A DNA stretch of 64,000 bases, taken from positions 18,527 to 82,526 of IMG/VR virus record IMGVR_UViG_3300025429_000011. One strand, written 5' to 3'. Position 1 is the first letter of the stretch; every line of letters begins with the position of its first letter. Below are positions 18,393-63,876 of the stretch, one piece after another. The position numbers were made by a program, and so were the translations under genes. The notes under the pieces are model-generated. The model was not told the origin of the DNA. It saw only the letters and a list, made by a program, of their open reading frames with translations, and did not search any database. Source of the stretch: a virus. Lineage: Duplodnaviria > Heunggongvirae > Uroviricota > Caudoviricetes.

Positions 18393-19331
18393 ATGAGTAC
18401 CTATCTTTTAAATGAATATATAGGTGCTGGTTATAGTGATGGTCTAATAATTCCACCTGCAGCACCGTCACAAATTATTTTTACTACAGTAGGTGCATAT
18501 TCATGGGCAGTACCACTAGGAGTAACTAGAATATGTGTTGTTGCAGTTGGGGGAGGTGGTGGAGGTGCAAATATAGCCAACGCTGGAGGAGGTGGCGGAG
18601 GTGGTTTAGTATATCTGAACAATTACACAGTAAAAGCTGGTGATATTGTTTCAGGAATCGTAGGAGATGGTGGTACAGCAAATACAGTAGGTGTTTCTAC
18701 TACAGTACTTGTTAATGGATCTAATATAATTACTGCTCAGGGTGGAAGTGGAGGATCTGGTACTGTTGGTGGATCGGGAGGAAGTGGTACTGGTATCTCA
18801 GGTATAGTTGCAAATTCAGGAGGAGCAGGAGGTAATTTTACTGGTTCTGGATCACCTTACGGTGCAGGTGGAGGTGGTGCTGCAGGTTATTCAGGTGCTG
18901 GAGGACGTGGTGGATTTTCATCAGGAAACTCTGGAGGTATAGCAGCTATTGCAGGTGCAGGAGGTGGTGGCGGTGGCGGGGGAGCTGCTTACAGTACAAA
19001 TAATACCGGTAGTGGTAGTGGTGCTGGAGGTGGTGGTGTTGGACTATTAGGTTCTGGTACAAATGGAACAGCTGGTACTCAAGGTTTTAGAAATACTCCT
19101 GTAAATCCTACTGGAGGCGGTGGTGGTTCAGGAGGAGCAGCTGGTACAAATGGCGGAGTTGTTAGTGCATCTGCTCCAGTTGGAGGAGCATACGGTGGTG
19201 GAGGCGGTGGTACACAGGGTGCTAACGGAAACCCTGCAGTTAACGGTAAAGGCGGGCAAGGTGCTGTAAGAATAATTTACGGTTATTCAACAGACACAAG
19301 AACATTTCCTTCTAATGCCGGGGATTTATAA
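18393..19331 (+). CDS. Glycine-rich domain protein, paralogous to the C-terminus of the 11656 fibre.
   Basis: AYSWAVPLGVTRICVVAVGGGGGGANIANAGGGGGGG ... GAVRIIYGYS matches the pattern of ..TYTTPGSVVWIRVRMIGGGGGGGGGG...GIIMIEEHYGS. Confidence 0.6.
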   Translation: MSTYLLNEYIGAGYSDGLIIPPAAPSQIIFTTVGAYSWAVPLGVTRICVVAVGGGGGGANIANAGGGGGGGLVYLNNYTVKAGDIVSGIVGDGGTANTVGVSTTVLVNGSNIITAQGGSGGSGTVGGSGGSGTGISGIVANSGGAGGNFTGSGSPYGAGGGGAAGYSGAGGRGGFSSGNSGGIAAIAGAGGGGGGGGAAYSTNNTGSGSGAGGGGVGLLGSGTNGTAGTQGFRNTPVNPTGGGGGSGGAAGTNGGVVSASAPVGGAYGGGGGGTQGANGNPAVNGKGGQGAVRIIYGYSTDTRTFPSNAGDL

Positions 19332-55200: not shown

Positions 55201-55721
55201 TGTATTATTCAACAAAGACATATGGTACTGATAGAGGTTTAAGTTGTTGCTTCCGTCAATGGAAAGCAGATCATAGTCACTGTTCTACTCTTCATGGCTA
55301 CTCGATCGGTATTAAATTAATTTTTAAATCAGAAACCCTTGATGAAAAAAACTGGGTTATGGACTTTGGTGGACTAAAAGCTTTTAAGGCTTGGGCTGAT
55401 CATATGTTTGATCATACAATGCTTATTGCACAAGATGATCCACATTTAGATACTTTTATCGAATTGAATAATATTGGTGGTGGTTTTAACGATAGCGGTG
55501 TTGTTGATCTGCGTATAGTTGATGCAGTTGGATGTGAGGCATTTGCTGAAATGACTTATCACGTTATGAATAATATCTTGAAATCATTTCAGGAAGGTGA
55601 TATAGTAGAGATTGATGATCAAGAATATACTGCACGGTATCCTGTCAACAAAGGTGTAAAGCTAGTTTCGGTAGAAGTATTTGAACATGCAGGTAATTCT
55701 GCAGTATACGAAGGTGAATAA
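55200..55721 (+). CDS. queD: 6-carboxy-5,6,7,8-tetrahydropterin synthase QueD (PTPS T-fold).
   Basis: ..CSTLHGYS..NWVMDFGGLKAFKAWADHMFDHTMLIAQDDP..VFEHAGNSAVYEGE aligns with E. coli QueD (..[51 protein letters not shown]). Confidence 0.8.
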   Translation: MYYSTKTYGTDRGLSCCFRQWKADHSHCSTLHGYSIGIKLIFKSETLDEKNWVMDFGGLKAFKAWADHMFDHTMLIAQDDPHLDTFIELNNIGGGFNDSGVVDLRIVDAVGCEAFAEMTYHVMNNILKSFQEGDIVEIDDQEYTARYPVNKGVKLVSVEVFEHAGNSAVYEGE

Positions 55722-56422
55722 TGATTAAAGGTTATAGAGATTATTTTACACCAGTAGTAGTAGAAGAAGAGCAGCCGATTAAAAAACTTTCAGCTATTAT
55801 TTTTTCTTGCTCATTAAAATCAGATCCAAATAAATCTATGTCTCATTATCTTAGTGAGATAGTTAAAGATAAGTTTGATGCAGAAAATATTGAAACAGAA
55901 ATTGTTTATATTAAAGATCTAAAAGATTTTAAATTTGGTGTAGAAAGAGAAGTTGAAGGTGAAAAAGATGACTTTACAGACTACATTGATAAAGTAATTA
56001 ATTCTGATATAGTTATTGTTGCCACTCCTATATGGTGGGGCGTCCATTCTAGTCTTGCACAAGCAGTCTTAGAAAGATTAACTTGGTTTGATGATGAAGC
56101 ATTAAGAACAAATCATAGTTTACTTTACGGTAAACTTTTTGGTACTATTGTTTCAGGTGCAGAAGATGGATGGCAACACATTCAAGGTAATATGTTTAAT
56201 TTTGCTTCTGAGCTAGGGTTTATAGTTCCTCCAAAAGCTTTTATTTCATCTAAGATGCAGAGTAAAAAAGAAATAGATAAAGACAAAGAGACACAAGACC
56301 AAGTTAATAGTTTTACTACTATTATGGTTGATCTTTGTAAAGTAATTTCATATAATGATTTAAATCAGTCGTTTCAATCAAATGGATTTTTGCAAGTAGG
56401 TACACTTGCTGGTAAAAAATAA
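55721..56422 (+). CDS. Flavodoxin-like fold protein (NAD(P)H-dependent FMN reductase family-like).
   Basis: SDIVIVATPIWWGVHSSLAQAVLERLTW resembles the FMN_red / flavodoxin_2 core (DA.I..SP.Y.G....LK...D). Confidence 0.4.
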   Translation: MIKGYRDYFTPVVVEEEQPIKKLSAIIFSCSLKSDPNKSMSHYLSEIVKDKFDAENIETEIVYIKDLKDFKFGVEREVEGEKDDFTDYIDKVINSDIVIVATPIWWGVHSSLAQAVLERLTWFDDEALRTNHSLLYGKLFGTIVSGAEDGWQHIQGNMFNFASELGFIVPPKAFISSKMQSKKEIDKDKETQDQVNSFTTIMVDLCKVISYNDLNQSFQSNGFLQVGTLAGKK

Positions 56423-56433
56423 TTGCAAGATAT

Positions 56434-57165
56434 ATGAAAGAGTTAGATATGAATGAATTAAACACACTACCAGTATCAGTAAGAATTAAGGAGCAATTAA
56501 AGAATGCCAATATTCGTTATTTTGCCAATGATAACGTTAGTCAATTTTTGGACGATGAATCTCGTGCTCTACTCATCGACGAGGTAGCAGATAAATTTGA
56601 AGGTGTTTTACGCTCTTTGTTAATCGACGTCGATAATGATCCTAATTCCAAAGGCACTGCTCACCGTCTTGCTAAGATGTACATTAATGAAATTATGTCT
56701 GGGAGATATTATAATGAACCTACTGTCACTTCATTCCCTAATGACGGGTCGCATGGAACGAAGCCTTATCATGGTATGCTTGTTGTCCGTGCTGAACTTA
56801 AGTCTATGTGTTCTCACCACCATCAACCTGTTACGGGAACCGCTTACATTGGAGTCATCCCTTCTACTAATGTTATCGGTCTCAGTAAGTATATTAGGAT
56901 TGCACAACATTGTGCAAGACGTGGCACTCTTCAAGAAGAACTTTGCGGGGACATCGCCGCAGCAATAAGTAAAGCAACACAGTCTAAAGACGTTGGTGTT
57001 TATATTGAAGCAACCCACGGCTGCTGTGAAAACAGAGGTATTATGGCTTCTAATAGTCTCACACAAACGTCAGTATTACTTGGTGATTTCTTAGATGATG
57101 CTTCAGTAAAGAATGAATTCTATAGTAATATTAAGTTACAGACAAGTCGTTATAGCTGTAACTAA
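56434..57165 (+). CDS. folE: GTP cyclohydrolase I FolE.
   Basis: KSMCSHHHQPVTGTAYIGVIPSTNVIGLSKYIRIAQHCARRGTLQEEL matches FolE (MCEHHLVPF.GKAHVAYIP...VVGLSK..R.V..FA.R.Q.QE.L). Confidence 0.9.
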   Translation: MKELDMNELNTLPVSVRIKEQLKNANIRYFANDNVSQFLDDESRALLIDEVADKFEGVLRSLLIDVDNDPNSKGTAHRLAKMYINEIMSGRYYNEPTVTSFPNDGSHGTKPYHGMLVVRAELKSMCSHHHQPVTGTAYIGVIPSTNVIGLSKYIRIAQHCARRGTLQEELCGDIAAAISKATQSKDVGVYIEATHGCCENRGIMASNSLTQTSVLLGDFLDDASVKNEFYSNIKLQTSRYSCN

Positions 57166-57464: not shown

Positions 57465-57818
57465 ATGAATTACTCATATTTTAAGAAAAACTATCTAATA
57501 GATAATTTATTAGATTATGATGGATATCCTAAACATACGCGATTTATTAAAAAGCTCTTTTATAGGTTTGCAGATGAGTTATTTAATGATTTTGGGTTTA
57601 ATATGCGTAAATGTTCTATATGCGGAATTGAAGATAAGTGGAATGGCAGACCTTTTATGATGGAACTTGACCATATTAACCGTATTACTAATGATTCAAG
57701 AATTGAAAATCTCAGAATTATATGTCCTATTTGTCATTCACAAACAGATGGTTACAAAAATAGGAAGATAACTATCGAAGAATATCATAGAAAGATGGTA
57801 TGTGATGGTATGGTATGA
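57465..57818 (+). CDS. HNH endonuclease.
   Basis: CSICG...ELDHINRITNDSRIENLRIICPICHSQT has the HNH core with flanking CxxC zinc-binding pairs. Confidence 0.7.
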   Translation: MNYSYFKKNYLIDNLLDYDGYPKHTRFIKKLFYRFADELFNDFGFNMRKCSICGIEDKWNGRPFMMELDHINRITNDSRIENLRIICPICHSQTDGYKNRKITIEEYHRKMVCDGMV

Positions 57819-58233
57819 AAACTCAGAAGGCCGGCATGGTAAAAATGGTGCTAAAGGTGATGCTGGTGAAAAATTTGTATCTGAGTATTTTGAAAAAAGA
57901 GGATTTGAATGGAAACATTTAAAAGATCCACACAGTCAGTATAATAGAGGTATAGATTTTATTGTTAATGGGTACCCTATAGATGTAAAAACAAATGGTA
58001 AGGAAAACACTCTTACTGTTGAATTGAAGAAAGAAGGCAAACAAGGTTGGCTTTATAAATCAGAAGCTGTATTTATTTTTGGTGTTGATTTAAAGCAAAA
58101 AGAAATATATGTTTATAGATTAGTAAAAATGCGTGAATATGTTAAAGAAAATATTAATAAAGCTTACTATAGAGGTGATGATTTGTTAATTAAAGTTCCT
58201 AAAACTTTAGAATTTATAAAAAGGTTACAATGA
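57802..58233 (+). CDS. Hypothetical protein with a PD-(D/E)xK nuclease-like motif.
   Basis: GIDFIVNGYPIDVKT matches the D...(D/E)xK pattern. Overlaps the HNH gene. Confidence 0.35.
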   Translation: MMVWYENSEGRHGKNGAKGDAGEKFVSEYFEKRGFEWKHLKDPHSQYNRGIDFIVNGYPIDVKTNGKENTLTVELKKEGKQGWLYKSEAVFIFGVDLKQKEIYVYRLVKMREYVKENINKAYYRGDDLLIKVPKTLEFIKRLQ

Positions 58234-59021
58234 AAATAGCACATGAAGCTCCTATAAGTATATTTCCTACAGTTCAGCTTATGACCGATTATGATTATGC
58301 GCTGGTACATTTATTTGAATCTAATTTAATGTATTACCGCATGTTCAAGGATGCAGTGGTAAGCGGACGTGAAGTAATTCTTGATAATTCTATTTTTGAA
58401 TTAGGTACATCATTTGATGGTGATACTTATTTTAATTGGATTGAAAAGTTACAACCTACATGGTACATTATACCAGATGTACTAGAAGATAAACAGGGCA
58501 CTTTGGATAAAATGGATAATTGGTTATCTAAGTATAAAGTCTCTTCAAATATTAAATCTATTGGTGTTATTCAAGGTAAGACTTTTGATGAGCTTGCTGA
58601 ATGTTATTTAAAGATTGCTCCACGGGTAGATAAAATTGCAATCTCTTTTGATTACTCATACTATATAGAATCAACAAAAGATATTAATCCTACTAGCAAA
58701 TACGCTGCATGGATGTTTGGTCGTCAAGCATTGTTAGAGGATTTACTTGCTGATGGTATTATAGATACTAACAAGCCCCATCATTTATTAGGTTGCGCTT
58801 TACCACAAGAATTCTCTGCCTATAAAGACTATAAGTGGATTGACTCTGTTGATACTTCTAATCCTGTAGTACACGGGTTAAATGGTATACATTATACTTC
58901 TAATGGCTTAGATAGTAAAATTTCTACTAAGCTTATTGAGTATATGAACGAACAAGTAACCGATATACAACTTGGTATGGTTAAATATAATATTGAAAAA
59001 TTTAGAGAGTTTTGTAATTGA
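58230..59021 (+). CDS. dpdA: DpdA-like 7-deazaguanine DNA transglycosylase (TGT-fold TIM barrel).
   Basis: IGVIQGKTFDE matches TGT FGIVQGG. HLLGCALPQEF..WIDSVDTSNPV matches TGT YLMGVGTPEDL..GIDMFDCVMPTRNA (catalytic Asp region). It is embedded in the preQ0/preQ1 biosynthesis cluster. Confidence 0.7.
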   Translation: MKIAHEAPISIFPTVQLMTDYDYALVHLFESNLMYYRMFKDAVVSGREVILDNSIFELGTSFDGDTYFNWIEKLQPTWYIIPDVLEDKQGTLDKMDNWLSKYKVSSNIKSIGVIQGKTFDELAECYLKIAPRVDKIAISFDYSYYIESTKDINPTSKYAAWMFGRQALLEDLLADGIIDTNKPHHLLGCALPQEFSAYKDYKWIDSVDTSNPVVHGLNGIHYTSNGLDSKISTKLIEYMNEQVTDIQLGMVKYNIEKFREFCN

Positions 59022-59554
59022 GACCGTGGATAGCTCTTTTTAGTCAAACTGGAAGTGAACTCAAAAGTATTTGTGATCACTTTAACGTATGGCCTACAAA
59101 CATATATACTAACAATTATAATGAAGATCAATGGGCTCATAATATACCTGTTGATAAAGTAACCATTATGAGCCATGATGCTATTCATAATGGATTGCGC
59201 TTTACTAAGCAAAATTGCTTTGTAACCTTGCATGGATATCTTCGTATTATACCTGCTGACGTTTGTAAAATGCATGACATTTACAACGGTCATCCTGCAC
59301 CTATACATCTTTATCCAGAACTTAAAGGTAAAGACCCTCAAGAGCGTATTTGGGAAGGTAATGCCAGGTATCATACATTAGGTTCAGTTATTCACAGAGT
59401 AACAGAAGGTGTTGATGAAGGCGAAATAGTTTATAGTGTTATTGAAGATAATACTTGCATTAGTAAGGAAGAGCTTTATAATACACTTAAGGATTGCTCA
59501 TATAATTCGTGGATTGAATTTTTAGAAAGTAAGATAGATGTCAGCAAAAGATAA
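59018..59554 (+). CDS. Formyltransferase (PurN/Fmt N-terminal-domain family). Candidate DpdN-type preQ1 formyltransferase.
   Basis: IYNGHPAPIHLYPELKG matches PurN LLNIHPSLLPKYPG. YHTLGSVIHRVTEGVDEGEIV matches EHGTSVHFVTDELDGGPVI. The N/H/D catalytic triad is conserved. Confidence 0.65.
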   Translation: MRPWIALFSQTGSELKSICDHFNVWPTNIYTNNYNEDQWAHNIPVDKVTIMSHDAIHNGLRFTKQNCFVTLHGYLRIIPADVCKMHDIYNGHPAPIHLYPELKGKDPQERIWEGNARYHTLGSVIHRVTEGVDEGEIVYSVIEDNTCISKEELYNTLKDCSYNSWIEFLESKIDVSKR

Positions 59555-59792
59555 TAAAGATGCAATTAGACCTAATCATTATAAAGGTAAAGGTAAATAC
59601 GAATGCATCGATGTAATTGAAGATCTCTGCAATACTTCTACTAATGATCGATTTACTGACTACAATAGGTTTCAAGCTTTTAAATATGTCTGGCGTGCAG
59701 GTAATAAAGATCCTGTAATTCAGGATCTTAAGAAAGCTATTACGTTTTTAGAATTTGCAATTGCATATGAGGAAAAGAAAAATGTCAAGTAA
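59538..59792 (+). CDS. Hypothetical small protein.
   Basis: 84-aa ORF. Confidence 0.35.
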   Translation: MSAKDNKDAIRPNHYKGKGKYECIDVIEDLCNTSTNDRFTDYNRFQAFKYVWRAGNKDPVIQDLKKAITFLEFAIAYEEKKNVK

Positions 59793-60723
59793 GATTGAAG
59801 ATATTGCATCCGTACACTTAGGAAAGGCTGGAGATGGATCAGTTGTTAAGCCTTATATTACTCCCGATTTTATTGATCGTAGCCTTCTTGTGGGTATTCC
59901 TCGCATGCTTAATCGCACTGCTTACAATATTGATGAATCTGATCTACCTTTCGTTGGTTTTGATACTTGGAACTGTTATGAGTTTTCTACCCTTACTGAT
60001 AATGGGTTTCCTGTTTGTGGTGTTATTAGGATTAGTTATCCGTCTGATTCGCCTAATATTGTAGAGTCAAAGTCACTTAAACTCTATATGAACTCATTTA
60101 ACATGACTCACTGTGGTAAGACCGTTGAGGATGTTATTGCAAAAGCAGAAGAAGTTATTATTCAAGATCTTGCACCTGCATTAGGTATTGAGTATGATGA
60201 TCTCTCAGTATCATTTGTTAATGAGTTTTCAGATACAGTAACACCAATCAAGAATTATTTTGCTCTTCTTGAAACTACAGTAGATGTAGAAAATATTTCG
60301 TTTGACCATTTTAACGAAGATCCAGATATCTTACAAATTGTAGATTATACTGGTATGAATCAAAATGGTATGCAAGTACGTTCTGCAGTTCTTCGTTCTA
60401 ACTGCCGTGTTACTAATCAGCCAGACTGGGGTGATGTATATATTTCATTCAGAGGTGAAAAAGGTGTAACACCTGAATCACTACTACAGTATATTGTTTC
60501 TATGCGTAAAGAAAATCACTTTCATGAAGAGATTTGTGAGTGCATTTATAAGCGACTTCATGATATGCTACAACCAGAAGATCTTTTTGTAGCATGTCTG
60601 TATACACGTCGTGGTGGTATTGATATTAATCCAGCACGCGCTTCTAGCTATGAGCTATTAATGACTTATGCAGATAATCTAAGCAAGACTCATAAATTGA
60701 ACAATAAGACATTGAGGCAGTAA
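59782..60723 (+). CDS. queF: NADPH-dependent 7-cyano-7-deazaguanine reductase QueF (bimodular, E. coli type).
   Basis: MSS..LGK...Y...Y....L.G.PR.LNR..........LPF.G.D.W..YE.S.L...G.P..... VESKSLKLYMNSFN, SNCRVTNQPDWG, ENHFHEEICE and YTRRGGIDINP align across E. coli QueF. Confidence 0.9.
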   Translation: MSSKIEDIASVHLGKAGDGSVVKPYITPDFIDRSLLVGIPRMLNRTAYNIDESDLPFVGFDTWNCYEFSTLTDNGFPVCGVIRISYPSDSPNIVESKSLKLYMNSFNMTHCGKTVEDVIAKAEEVIIQDLAPALGIEYDDLSVSFVNEFSDTVTPIKNYFALLETTVDVENISFDHFNEDPDILQIVDYTGMNQNGMQVRSAVLRSNCRVTNQPDWGDVYISFRGEKGVTPESLLQYIVSMRKENHFHEEICECIYKRLHDMLQPEDLFVACLYTRRGGIDINPARASSYELLMTYADNLSKTHKLNNKTLRQ

Positions 60724-61469
60724 TGAACTTACAAGAAGCATTAGCAGCATTACCTGATACAGATGATAATGTAGTATCCGTTCTTTCTGGTGGAATGGAT
60801 TCTACTATCATGACTTACATCCTTGTTGCAAAGTATGGCAAGGAAAGAGTTTTTGCTTTATCATATAACTATGGTCAAAAGCAAAAGAAAGAACTTGAGA
60901 TGGCTGCCAAGACATGTGAATATCTTGGCATTGCTCATAAAGTATTGGATCTTGGAATTCTTGGTGATATTGTAAAGGATGTCAGTGCAAATATCGGCGG
61001 CACTGACGTGGCTATGCCAACCATCAAAGATGTTCTTGGAGATCCACAACCTAAAACTTATGTACCATTCCGCAATATGATCTTAAATGCATTAGCATTT
61101 TCATTTGCTGAATCTAATAAAGCTTCTCATGTATTTACCGGTTTACAAGTACATGACGAGTATGGCTACTGGGATACTTCTCAGAAATTTGTTGATAATA
61201 TGAATGCAGTTGCTGGTCTTAATCGCACCCACAAGGTTAAGCTTGAAGCGCCTTTTAGTCAATTAGCAAAGTGGGAAGAGATCAAGATTGCAGAGGAGCT
61301 TGGTAATGTTAAACTTGAATACACTCTTACTTGTTATGATCCTGATGATGATGGAAGGTCATGTGGTGTTTGCCCCAGCTGTTCGGAGCGTATACAGAAT
61401 TTTATTAGAGCTAATGTTCGTGATCCTATTGCTTACGTACACGGTATCGATTGGGATAGATTTATATAA
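60723..61469 (+). CDS. queC: 7-cyano-7-deazaguanine synthase QueC.
   Basis: PP-loop VLSGGMDST, ..YNYGQKQKKELE..AHKVLDL, and a C-terminal Zn cluster CYDPDDDGRSCGVCPSCSER. Confidence 0.9.
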   Translation: MNLQEALAALPDTDDNVVSVLSGGMDSTIMTYILVAKYGKERVFALSYNYGQKQKKELEMAAKTCEYLGIAHKVLDLGILGDIVKDVSANIGGTDVAMPTIKDVLGDPQPKTYVPFRNMILNALAFSFAESNKASHVFTGLQVHDEYGYWDTSQKFVDNMNAVAGLNRTHKVKLEAPFSQLAKWEEIKIAEELGNVKLEYTLTCYDPDDDGRSCGVCPSCSERIQNFIRANVRDPIAYVHGIDWDRFI

Positions 61470-62098
61470 TGTGCAGTATCATTGGTTCTTTCAGTAAAGA
61501 TAAAATTGCTGACCTCGTAAAGCTAAACCTTTATAGAGGTCAGCATTCATATTCTTATTCTTACTATAACCTTGAAGATAATACAATCCAAGTAAACAGA
61601 GGCTTAGGTGAGATACCTCTTGATGCTATTAACATACCCGATAGGTGCTATTGTATTGCTCATATGCAGGCGCCTACAACAGAAAATAAAGATATAAATT
61701 CTGTTCACCCTGCTTATAGTGGTAATGCTTTACTATGGCATAACGGTATAGTAAAGGCAAAATGGATTAACGAACGTAAGCAACAATATGAAGGTGACCG
61801 TTATAATACTTGGGATACTTATTTGATTTTAAAGCAGTATGCTGAGGAAGGTCACCTAAATAATATTGATGGTACTTTTTCCTGTGTGTACTACAGTCCT
61901 ATGGAAGGATTGCAGTTGTTTCGCAATCTCATTTCACCATTGTTCATAGATGATGATCATAATATCTCATCTACAAAATTTGAAAATTCTCAACCATTAC
62001 CTGCAAATATTATCTGGAGTTTTAATCCAGGTGAAGGTATTATAAGAGATGGTATTTTTAATACAGTTGAAAACCCTTATTATGGATTAGATTTATGA
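61469..62098 (+). CDS. Class-II (Ntn) glutamine amidotransferase domain protein, translationally coupled to queC (TAATG).
   Basis: N-terminal MCSIIG (Cys2 nucleophile after Met removal). 209 aa, the size of a stand-alone GATase-II domain. Confidence 0.55.
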   Translation: MCSIIGSFSKDKIADLVKLNLYRGQHSYSYSYYNLEDNTIQVNRGLGEIPLDAINIPDRCYCIAHMQAPTTENKDINSVHPAYSGNALLWHNGIVKAKWINERKQQYEGDRYNTWDTYLILKQYAEEGHLNNIDGTFSCVYYSPMEGLQLFRNLISPLFIDDDHNISSTKFENSQPLPANIIWSFNPGEGIIRDGIFNTVENPYYGLDL

Positions 62099-62610
62099 GT
62101 ATGTTACATATTGCTTCAAAGAAAACCAAATCAAGTTTAACCAATATGTTGGATGAAGATATCCAACCTAATGCCGTTGATCTTCGTCTTGATAAAATTT
62201 TTATTATTCATCCTGCTCTCTTTACTCTTGGTACTGATGATACTGGTAAAGAAATCAAAAAGCATAGAGGATCAGTAGAGATATATCCTGATAGTGAAGG
62301 TTACTTTTATTTGCATCCAGGTAATGCATACGAAGTTATTATGGAAAATGTTATTGAGGTAGGTGATGGTGAAGCAGGTTGGGTTATTACCAGAAGTACT
62401 CTTAATCGTAATGGTTTGTATATTACTTCCGGTTTATATGACTCTGGCTATCATGGAGTTATGGCTGGTGCTCTACATGTAAAAAATGGTCCAGCAAAAA
62501 TTAAAAAAGGTAGCCGTATTGGCCAGTTTTTACTTTTTAAGTCTGAGTCACTAAAGAAGTATGATGGTGATTATGGTCTCGGTAAAGAGCATGATAAAAA
62601 ATATACTTGA
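62095..62610 (+). CDS. dCTP deaminase / dUTPase superfamily protein (Dcd-like).
   Basis: NAVDLRLD matches Dcd ATVDVRLG. EGYFYLHPGNAYEV matches Dcd EGEAFYLHPGELAL. GLYDSGYHGVM resembles dUTPase motif III G.IDxDYRG. Confidence 0.65.
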   Translation: MSMLHIASKKTKSSLTNMLDEDIQPNAVDLRLDKIFIIHPALFTLGTDDTGKEIKKHRGSVEIYPDSEGYFYLHPGNAYEVIMENVIEVGDGEAGWVITRSTLNRNGLYITSGLYDSGYHGVMAGALHVKNGPAKIKKGSRIGQFLLFKSESLKKYDGDYGLGKEHDKKYT

Positions 62611-62782
62611 ATATATTAAATGGTCTAACTTATTAATAAAATTTAGATTAAACCCATTTCGGTGGCATATATCCTATAGTTGGTATACTCATAGTGATAT
62701 GGATCCTGGAATGTTAATAAATGCGCATTTAGAATTTGGTCCATTAGAAATTGCATTATGGATTGATGATGGTAGTTGGTAA
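62591..62782 (+). CDS. Possible small protein (64 aa from the ATG at 62591).
   Basis: MIKNILEYIKWSNLLIKFRLNPFRWHISYSWYTHSDMDPGMLINAHLEFGPLEIALWIDDGSW fills the 190-bp gap before the next gene. Confidence 0.3.
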   Translation: MIKNILEYIKWSNLLIKFRLNPFRWHISYSWYTHSDMDPGMLINAHLEFGPLEIALWIDDGSW

Positions 62783-62802
62783 AAAACAAGGAAAAATAAA
62801 AA

Positions 62803-63876
62803 ATGGAAATTAAAATTGATTTAGAATTATTGCGCTCTAAGAAAATTTTCTTAGCTACACCAATGTATGGTGGTAATTGTAACGGCATGTATACCCGTTC
62901 ATTGTGTGACTTGACCGCTATGTGTGTTAAGTATGGTATTGAACTTCGTTCTTACTTTCTTTTCAACGAGTCCTTGATTACACGTGCTCGTAACTATTGT
63001 GTTGACGAGTTTATGCGTTCAGGTGCAGATCACCTTCTATTCATTGACTCTGACATTGGATTTAATCCACAAGACGTTATTGCTATGATGGCATTGCAAG
63101 CAGCAGAACCAGAGAAGTATAATGTTATTGGTGGTCCATATCCTAAGAAGTGTATTACATGGGAAAAGATTCTTGCTGCTGTTAATAAAGGTGTAGCAGA
63201 TCAAAATCCTAATCAGTTAGAAGATTTCGTCGGTGATTTTGTTTTTAATCCAGTTATTACAGGTGAGCAGACTTCTATTCGTCTTGATGAGCCAGCTGAA
63301 GTTCTTGAGATCGGTACAGGCTTTATGATGGTAACACGTGATACTTTCTTGACATTTGAAAAAGAGTATCCACAGTATTCCTATAAACCAGATCATGTTC
63401 GCACCGAAGCCTTTGATGGTTCACGTGAAATTATGATGTACTTCCAGGCTGAAAAAGATGGTTTAGATTATGGCAAGTTCTATGCTGACGGTATGCAGAA
63501 AATTGCCGCTATGCGTCTCAACGATCCTGATCTAGTACAAGCAGAAATTGAAAAGTTAATGGCAACTGCTATTGAAATGGATTCAAGAACTTCTAAGCGT
63601 TATCTCTCAGAGGATTATTGGTTCTGTCAATTAGTTCGCCGTATTGGATTGAAAGTCTGGTTGTGCCCTTGGATGCACTTACAGCATGCTGGTACATATG
63701 TGTTTGCTGGTAAGCTACCTGCATTAGCTTCAATTGGTGCATCTGCAACTGCTGATGCTGCTCTTCTTAATAAATTTAAGAACGGCGGTGTAGCTAAACC
63801 AGCAATCGCACCTTCAAAGTCTACACCGGTCATTGCTAATGATCCTGCTCTTCTTAGCAAGTTTAAGAAGATTTAA
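62803..63876 (+). CDS. GT-A-fold glycosyltransferase-like protein, paralogous to the C-terminal domain of the 1386-4169 glycosyltransferase.
   Basis: KIFLATPMYGG...HLLFIDSDIGFNPQD matches KILIAIPTARN...YLFAVDSDISFAPDT. The C-terminus has a tandem repeat, AALLNKFKNG / PALLSKFKKI. Confidence 0.45.
   Translation: MEIKIDLELLRSKKIFLATPMYGGNCNGMYTRSLCDLTAMCVKYGIELRSYFLFNESLITRARNYCVDEFMRSGADHLLFIDSDIGFNPQDVIAMMALQAAEPEKYNVIGGPYPKKCITWEKILAAVNKGVADQNPNQLEDFVGDFVFNPVITGEQTSIRLDEPAEVLEIGTGFMMVTRDTFLTFEKEYPQYSYKPDHVRTEAFDGSREIMMYFQAEKDGLDYGKFYADGMQKIAAMRLNDPDLVQAEIEKLMATAIEMDSRTSKRYLSEDYWFCQLVRRIGLKVWLCPWMHLQHAGTYVFAGKLPALASIGASATADAALLNKFKNGGVAKPAIAPSKSTPVIANDPALLSKFKKI

Follow-up and report, generated by a model that had tools for sequence, protein, structure and literature searches.

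The window analysed here is a stretch of 64,000 nucleotides (nt) of the viral record IMGVR_UViG_3300025429_000011 (IMG/VR, positions 18,527 to 82,526), and directly behind the gene for QueC, the synthase of the nitrile preQ0, it encodes a separate protein of 209 amino acids with the fold of a class II, or N-terminal nucleophile (Ntn), glutamine amidotransferase. Here we describe the conservation of this protein, called the GATase below, and its link to one clade of QueC, and we propose that the two proteins probably form a preQ0 synthase of two subunits that depends on glutamine, with the GATase as its glutaminase. The proposal draws on the fold, on the near-invariance of the predicted catalytic residues and on a genomic linkage that holds in both directions.

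Relatives of QueC such as AsnB, GMP synthase and NAD synthetase obtain their ammonia from glutaminases. To our knowledge, the sole glutaminase attached to QueC is that of Gat-QueC, which is assigned to archaeosine synthesis, and we know of no glutaminase partner of canonical QueC. QueC, a PP-loop ATP pyrophosphatase, draws its nitrogen from ammonia and converts 7-carboxy-7-deazaguanine (CDG) to the amide and then to the nitrile (PMC13082051), and a stand-alone glutaminase encoded beside a PP-loop ATP pyrophosphatase has been described for PF06508 cluster 6 (PMC13082051). Gat-QueC serves archaeosine synthesis in Crenarchaeota, phage 9g and other Queuovirinae. The pair in the window combines known themes, namely a glutaminase with a PP-loop synthetase and QueC with a GATase, and it is the function of the GATase that we infer. 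In the papers searched on QueC proteins and on the 7-deazaguanine pathways of phages, including the work on nt-1 and VH7D, no stand-alone GATase beside a phage QueC was found (the 2024 review in Microbiology and Molecular Biology Reviews and the supplementary tables of PMC10516641 lay outside the search).

If true, the proposal would describe the first glutamine-dependent route to preQ0, and would add an unrecognised, widely conserved gene (PHROG 12378) to the phage clusters for 7-deazaguanine modification of DNA. The 51 sequenced phage records with the pair include the experimentally studied nt-1, VH7D, phi-Grn1 and KVP40. These phages likely take glutamine as the nitrogen source for their modified guanine, which may explain how nitrogen for the nitrile is supplied in phages in which a large part of the guanine, or the whole of it, is replaced. 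The pair also offers a natural comparison for two residues of the QueC pocket, the His of YxQxH and the Cys of YPDC, both of which are lost in the two glutaminase-associated lineages.

Linkage of the GATase to one clade of QueC

At the junction of the two genes, which reads ...ATATAATGTGC..., the stop codon of QueC (TAA, 61467-61469) and the start codon of the GATase (ATG, 61469-61471) have one base in common, and the open reading frame (ORF) of the GATase has no in-frame start upstream of 61469. An earlier note on this DNA, made from the letters alone, had described a split pair in reversed order relative to Gat-QueC, with an Ntn-type GATase and a stop/start overlap, and the reading frames, the TAATG and the evidence on the fold bear this description out. 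The TAATG is likely a site of termination-reinitiation coupling. Its interpretation as translational coupling needs qualifying in one respect, in that the overlap is real and recurs in 41 of 79 loci but is not special inside the window, where other gene pairs also overlap (QueF/QueC, GATase/Dcd with ATGA at 62095-62098, and DpdA/DpdN). Within the cluster the overlap is unremarkable by itself; its conservation across loci exceeds chance.

Conservation of the arrangement was scored in two sets of loci. Set A comprised 80 IMG/VR loci chosen by the GATase together with 3 isolates, of which 79 had enough upstream DNA to be informative, and set B comprised 80 loci chosen by QueC, of which 74 had enough downstream DNA. 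Each of the 79 informative loci of set A has QueC upstream of the GATase and in the same orientation. The two genes share the 1-nt T(A/G)ATG overlap in 41 of these, overlap by 8-14 nt in 13 and are separated by gaps of at most 53 nt in 10, so that in 64 of the 79 the GATase overlaps QueC or lies within 53 nt of it. Conversely, 73 of the 74 informative loci of set B encode the GATase.

The pair is not the rarity that the earlier note had implied. When 50,697 phage records were searched with the GATase by tblastn, 51 were positive at 30-40% identity, comprising 49 Vibrio phages (KVP40, nt-1, VH7D, ValKK3 and phi-pp2 among them) and 2 records of Pseudomonas phage pf16. In the 40 phage records listed and the 5 loci inspected the GATase adjoins QueC and is annotated as 'hypothetical protein' or 'nucleophile aminohydrolase'. 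A parallel tblastn search with QueC gave 233 positive records, the top 51 at 51-68% identity and the next best at 38%; those 51 are again 49 Vibrio and 2 pf16 records, and no phage among the GATase matches listed is missing from them. The genomic link of the GATase to one QueC clade is therefore strict in both directions. The cluster of Flavobacterium phage immuto_2-6A (18.8 kb examined) encodes DpdA3, DpdN and QueF but no QueC, and no immuto record was among the GATase matches.

Outside sequenced phages, 185,579 species genomes yielded only 5 loci, all of them on short contigs of metagenome-assembled genomes (MAGs) with the same phage cluster, so that the family appears to be phage-restricted within the limits of strict search patterns. 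Several metagenomes contain the GATase protein of the window in identical form, on 15 contigs in all, of which the longest measure 0.2-1 Mb. A large protein database held 334 relatives, all stand-alone, metagenomic and about 205-220 amino acids long, and the breadth of the family amounts to 293 representative sequences at E <= 1e-30.

Tailoring genes were counted in 50 loci with more than 3.5 kb of upstream DNA. Among these, 23 encode QueF, DpdN and DpdA3, 14 encode QueF without DpdN, and 13 lack QueF; in two of the QueF-less loci (L005 and L006) the GATase is 90% identical to that of the window. The presence of the GATase is independent of which tailoring genes follow.

Fold and residues of the GATase and its partner

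Against the Pfam model GATase_6 the GATase scores 23.8 bits (E 5e-5), below the gathering score of 27; 10 of 31 family members match this model at E <= 0.01, and one relative, P0191, exceeds the threshold with 32.9. No NCBIfam family covers the protein, and PHROG 12378, of which it is a member (E 2e-37), is labelled 'unknown function'. The single sequence gave only chance matches when compared with PDB sequences by phmmer, and a family profile was required. With a profile built from 31 relatives, the glutaminase domain of E. coli GlmS was matched at E 2e-4. The AlphaFold model, for which the family alignment was the input, has a predicted local distance difference test score (pLDDT) of 92.2 and a predicted template modelling score (pTM) of 0.89, and a Foldseek search with this model returned GFAT, GlmS, PurF and EgtC at E about 1e-8. 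The protein shows the four layers, alpha-beta-beta-alpha, of the Ntn fold and has the fold of a class II GATase.

Residue conservation was assessed in an alignment of 266 family members, and equivalences to GlmS were obtained by profile alignment. Cys2, directly after the initiator Met, corresponds to GlmS Cys1 and is present in 261 of the 266 members (98%). Comparable conservation is found at Arg23-Gly24 (GlmS Arg26; 99%), Pro69-Thr70 (GlmS Thr76; 98-100%), His91-Asn92-Gly93 (GlmS Asn98-Gly99; about 100%) and Trp115-Asp116 (GlmS Asp123; 100%), and also, with no GlmS counterpart named, at His65, His80-Pro81, Arg152-Asn153 and Ser167-Ser168 (98-100%). On the basis of the structures of GlmS, PurF and AsnB, we take Cys1 to be the nucleophile, N98-G99 the oxyanion hole, D123 the binder of the alpha-amino group and Arg73 (AsnB Arg49) the binder of the alpha-carboxylate. 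By alignment, Cys2 of the GATase is predicted to be the nucleophile after removal of Met, N92-G93 the oxyanion hole and D116 the alpha-amino binder. The C-terminal motif ENPYY (within residues 201-209) is more than 90% conserved, and the last nine residues have a mean pLDDT of 54; to judge from the model, this conserved tail, disordered in isolation, may be a docking peptide for a partner.

The QueC of the window scores 172.3 against TIGR00364 (cut-off 150.3) and also matches the Asn_synthase and NAD_synthase models of Pfam. The TIGR00364 score was tried as a means of telling this QueC from the QueC domain of Gat-QueC and proved too close to discriminate (172 vs 150). Like the canonical, ammonia-dependent bacterial enzyme, the QueC of the window passes TIGR00364 and keeps the SGGxDS, VPxRN and Cys4 zinc motifs, which here read LSGGMDS, YVPFRN and C204-x9-C214-x2-C217-x2-C220, the first spacer being x9 rather than the canonical x8. 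All 73 GATase-associated QueC sequences retain SGGxDS, YVPFRN and the Cys4 zinc site.

Unlike canonical QueC, however, the protein has a glutaminase-like neighbour and differs in the substrate pocket. The canonical pocket motifs are YxQxHxxE and YPDC (PMC13082051); in the GATase-associated clade (n=73) they are replaced, invariantly or nearly so, by YGQKQxxE and YWDT, the QueC of the window reading YGQKQKKE when aligned to the QueC structures 2pg3 and 3bl5 of the PDB. The Tyr residues found essential by mutagenesis in E. coli QueC are retained in the clade, and the signature is identical in loci with and without QueF. Gat-QueC likewise lacks the His of YxQxH and has YPDN instead of YPDC, so that these two residues near the substrate pocket, the His and the Cys, are gone from both glutaminase-associated lineages. 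It is a matter of speculation that these two residues handle free ammonia in canonical QueC and that their loss is a shared adaptation to ammonia delivered by a glutaminase.

A proposed two-subunit preQ0 synthase and its alternatives

An Ntn glutaminase requires a free N-terminal cysteine, and such a GATase can therefore be fused only in front of its partner; behind QueC it must be a separate chain. In the mechanism that we propose, removal of the initiator Met would expose Cys2 as the N-terminal nucleophile for the hydrolysis of glutamine, and the ammonia set free would pass to a QueC with which the GATase would be in physical contact. QueC would amidate ATP-activated CDG to the amide and then dehydrate the amide to the nitrile preQ0, which QueF would reduce to preQ1; DpdA3 would insert preQ1 in the DNA and DpdN would formylate it. 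Through the overlap of stop and start codons, translation of the GATase would be coupled to that of QueC and the subunits would be made in step. That the GATase could channel ammonia to QueC had been suggested in the earlier note, and this fits the strict two-way link to a QueC clade, the conserved catalytic residues and the independence from tailoring genes.

Two known systems can be compared with this arrangement. AsnB is one chain, in which an N-terminal class II GATase is fused to a PP-loop synthetase and ammonia travels through an internal tunnel, whereas the parts are separate in the window, QueC also dehydrates its amide to a nitrile, and the position of AsnB Arg49 is held by Gln in the GATase. 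The archaeal-type two-subunit GMP synthase also has a separate glutaminase, encoded beside a PP-loop gene, but that glutaminase is a class I triad GATase (PF00117) and the one described here is class II (Ntn).

Several observations weigh against the proposed glutaminase subunit. Most phage QueC proteins, and bacterial QueC, function without such a partner. In 15 of the 79 loci of set A inserts of 300-1200 nt separate QueC from the GATase, and translational coupling is thus not obligatory; the inserted ORFs examined encode a YhhQ/Vut_1 queuosine-precursor transporter, a 2-oxoglutarate-Fe(II) oxygenase, an acyl carrier protein together with a class II aldolase, and, by a weak match, an NT5C-like protein. 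In locus L090, one of the 5 loci from species genomes and on a contig of a Flavobacterium sp. MAG (NZ_JAQTPQ010000119.1), QueC and the GATase are about 5 kb apart in the order GATase-QueF ... QueE-FolE-QueC. This is the sole locus seen in which the GATase is not downstream of QueC, and as the pair is present though separated, the co-occurrence survives the loss of adjacency. A search for natural GATase-QueC fusions was negative for the best 150 of the 1369 representatives; three longer proteins among them bear other C-terminal extensions, one a DUF3310 domain (P0278, 349 amino acids). By mirror-tree analysis, the distances of QueC correlate with those of the GATase (r 0.60) no better than in other cluster pairs, which makes this test of co-evolution uninformative; the GATase correlates best with QueF (0.82). 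Finally, the position of the alpha-carboxylate-binding Arg (GlmS/PurF Arg73, AsnB Arg49) is occupied by Gln67, an equivalence that comes from the sequence alignment, and Gln is almost universal there (265 of 266 members). The substrate may therefore be something other than free glutamine, or glutamine may be bound in another way.

The change at residue 67 and the similarity to EgtC would both fit an Ntn amidohydrolase that is a partner of QueC but has some amide or nitrile as its substrate in place of free glutamine, for example a gamma-glutamyl conjugate, as in EgtC, or the deazaguanine amide ADG or preQ0, with a role in editing, recycling or diverting the pathway. EgtC itself, an Ntn amidohydrolase of the same fold from the ergothioneine pathway, has about 12% identity to the GATase, serves another pathway and acts on a gamma-glutamyl conjugate. 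We consider such a role unlikely, as the alpha-amino binder Asp116 and Thr70 (GlmS Thr76) are invariant, which argues for an alpha-amino-acid substrate, and as the cluster already has an enzyme for each step from GTP to formyl-preQ1, so that an extra step is unneeded; no particular alternative substrate is indicated. A bolder reading, which we judge to be quite unlikely, would take three near-invariant features, Gln67, the remodelled QueC pocket (YGQKQ, YWDT) and the ENPYY tail, as marks of a distinct two-component enzyme. Its Cys-nucleophile subunit would act on a 7-deazaguanine intermediate or another amide donor, and, in phages without QueF at least, the product or control step of the enzyme would be additional to the eight 7-deazaguanine modifications known from DNA.

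A split archaeosine synthase, in which QueC and the GATase would do the job of Gat-QueC of phage 9g and convert CDG or preQ0 to the amidine G+, with 2'-deoxyarchaeosine (dG+) in the DNA as a result, has its own attractions. The GATase is homologous to the whole Gat domain of Gat-QueC and has the PTT(E) motif in common with it, G+ is possible in the 13 of 50 loci that lack QueF, and a small amount of dG+ is present in nt-1, one of the phages with the pair (PMC6884629, Table 2). Moreover, Vibrio hosts make preQ0 themselves, and data on phage DNA therefore do not prove what the phage pair makes.

The relationship to Gat-QueC is, however, remote. In phage 9g this enzyme is a single protein of 471 amino acids with Gat at the N-terminus, in agreement with what the earlier note had said of known systems. 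BLASTP of the GATase against it aligned only the N-terminal MCSI(F/I)G (E 0.01), and hhalign against the single 9g sequence gave a probability of 11%. With a profile of 13 Gat-QueC sequences, hhalign covered 179 columns, the whole Gat domain, at a probability of 82%, E 1e-5 and 22% identity. Among viral class II GATases ranked by structure, the Gat-QueC of Pantoea phage Vid5 came 15th and the top neighbours were generic class II GATases, so that the GATase is structurally no closer to Gat than to other viral members of the class. The QueC of the window shares 26% identity with the QueC domain of 9g Gat-QueC. The GATase and Gat are homologous at the superfamily level; a specific sister relationship could not be demonstrated.

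Both systems join a class II Ntn GATase to a QueC-family PP-loop enzyme in a 7-deazaguanine pathway, and A/E-PTT(E) and HNG motifs occur in the GATase family of the window as in Gat-QueC. Unlike Gat-QueC, the pair in the window consists of two polypeptides in different frames with QueC first, and of the Gat-QueC signature (NxRAEPTTE, DQQPY, IVHNGTIAND, IDSAAI) the GATase lacks RAEPTTE, DQQPY and IDSAAI; where Gat-QueC has the Arg of RAEPTTE, the GATase has Gln. Gat-QueC yields G+ in a QueF-free pathway, whereas the pair in the window co-occurs with QueF and DpdN and related phages have DNA of the dPreQ1 type and not of the dG+ type (PMC10516641).

The pathway context likewise disfavours the conversion of preQ0 to G+ that the earlier note had offered as its second possibility. 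The nitrile is required by QueF, whose gene is coupled to that of QueC, immediately in front of it, in the window and occurs in 37 of the 50 loci; the QueC clade signature is the same with or without QueF. Phage phi-Grn1 has QueF-QueC-GATase, and its DNA contains dPreQ1 at 816 and mdPreQ1 at 35 per 10^6 nt, with dG+ at 0 (PMC10516641, Table 1). In nt-1 dPreQ0 dominates (PMC6884629), and its dG+ was reproduced in E. coli by DpdA2 and ArcS2 with no GATase (PMC10516641, Table 3). A split archaeosine synthase is, on this evidence, improbable.

We think it very doubtful that the GATase serves another enzyme or process, be it the Dcd-like protein, the phrog_1574 protein or general nitrogen metabolism, with QueC a mere syntenic neighbour. 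Of 72 loci, 44 do have a gene for the Dcd-like protein downstream of the GATase and 64 one for the phrog_1574 protein, and the top mirror-tree correlation is with QueF and not with QueC. In the Vibrio and Pseudomonas isolates, however, other genes follow the GATase, with no Dcd-like or phrog_1574 gene; KVP40-like phages, pf16 and Vibrio phage 2.275.O differ downstream while QueC is always upstream, the GATase was never seen without this QueC clade, and a deaminase requires no ammonia. QueC is the sole constant partner of the GATase among its neighbours. The loss of the canonical Arg and the score of the GATase under the Pfam gathering threshold might point to a subunit of QueC that has a structural or regulatory role and no catalytic activity. 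This is highly improbable, as Cys2, Asn92-Gly93 and Asp116 are near-invariant in 266 sequences whose identity is elsewhere down to about 30%.

The surrounding modification cluster and its predicted base

Every gene between 54 and 64 kb of the window lies on the + strand, and together they form a cluster for 7-deazaguanine modification of DNA (Table 1). The remainder of the window encodes a terminase, tail sheath, portal and major head protein, from which it follows that the window comes from a large myovirus. A megablast of positions 58000-63000 of the window against phages gave no match.

Table 1. Features of the modification cluster in the window, followed by ORFs inserted between QueC and the GATase in other loci (coordinates of the locus named)
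Feature	Position	Strand	Basis or remark
QueE, radical S-adenosylmethionine (SAM) CDG synthase, makes the carboxylate substrate for QueC; start codon uncertain	54056..54946	+	Pfam Radical_SAM + Fer4_12; homologues in the same position in related loci
QueD, CPH4 synthase	55200..55721	+	Pfam PTPS, E 4e-16
NADPH-dependent FMN-reductase/flavodoxin-like protein	55721-56422	+	PF03358, E 1e-15; between QueD and FolE
FolE, GTP cyclohydrolase I, pathway step one	56434..57165	+	PF01227, E 4e-39
HNH endonuclease	57465-57818	+	Between FolE and DpdA
DpdA3-type DNA guanine transglycosylase	58230..59021	+	57% full-length identity to immuto_2-6A DpdA; 37% to Campylobacter phage CP220 homologue
DpdN-like formyltransferase, predicted preQ1 formylase	59018..59554	+	Pfam Formyl_trans_N; phmmer E 3e-35 to immuto_2-6A formyltransferase
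Small DUF3310 protein	59538..59792	+	PF11753, E 2e-12; recurs in related loci
Bimodular QueF, NADPH-dependent preQ0 reductase, consumer of the nitrile	59782..60723	+	Pfam QueF_N + QueF; TIGR03138, E 3e-67
QueF/QueC TAATG stop/start overlap	60721..60725	+	Sequence
QueC (preQ0 synthase), 248 amino acids, GATase-associated clade	60723..61469	+	PF06508, E 3e-53; TIGR00364
QueC/GATase TAATG overlap	61467..61471	+	Sequence; 1 nt in common
Stand-alone protein of class II (Ntn) glutamine amidotransferase fold, 209 amino acids, MCSIIGSF...	61469..62098	+	Predicted glutaminase subunit
dCTP deaminase/dUTPase-like protein (Dcd-like)	62095..62610	+	Pfam DCD; ATGA overlap with GATase stop; candidate pathway member only
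phrog_1574 protein, weak glycosyltransferase similarity	62803..63876	+	PHROG, E 2e-61; candidate pathway member only
Inserted ORF, locus L033	9404-10000		
Inserted ORF, locus L044	9411-10001		
Inserted ORF, locus L063	3703-4386		
Inserted ORF, locus L070	3808-4775		
Inserted ORF, locus L031	9384-10001		

Homologues of DpdA3, DpdN and QueF occur together in the cluster of the window, as they do in Flavobacterium phage immuto_2-6A, the formyltransferase and QueF matching the immuto genes at E 3e-35 and E 1e-79, respectively. In immuto_2-6A formyl-dPreQ1 (fdPreQ1) is the sole form of guanine in the DNA, and its formyltransferase has been named DpdN (PMC10516641). By homology to these three genes, fdPreQ1 is likely to be the end product in the uncultured phage of the window as well, with preQ1 as the base that DpdA handles, and replacement of guanine may possibly be complete, as in immuto_2-6A. 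Which base DpdA inserts had been raised as a question by the earlier note; the 57% identity of DpdA3 and the presence of DpdN and QueF suggest that it is likely preQ1, which would then be formylated.

The start of QueF was placed differently by two procedures, the mechanical ORF beginning at TTG 59755 and the gene callers on identical contigs choosing ATG 59782. No homologue of the FMN-reductase-like protein was found in the 83 related loci scanned, and its gene therefore looks like an addition peculiar to this phage; the protein could be an electron donor to the radical-SAM enzyme QueE. The HNH endonuclease ORF, likewise seen in none of the related loci scanned, is probably a mobile homing-endonuclease insertion. 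Among the ORFs inserted between QueC and the GATase in other loci, one has a GIY-YIG-like look, for which Pfam gave no confirmation. The DUF3310 protein recurs in related clusters (L011, L019 and L039), often as two copies flanking QueF, directly before QueC.

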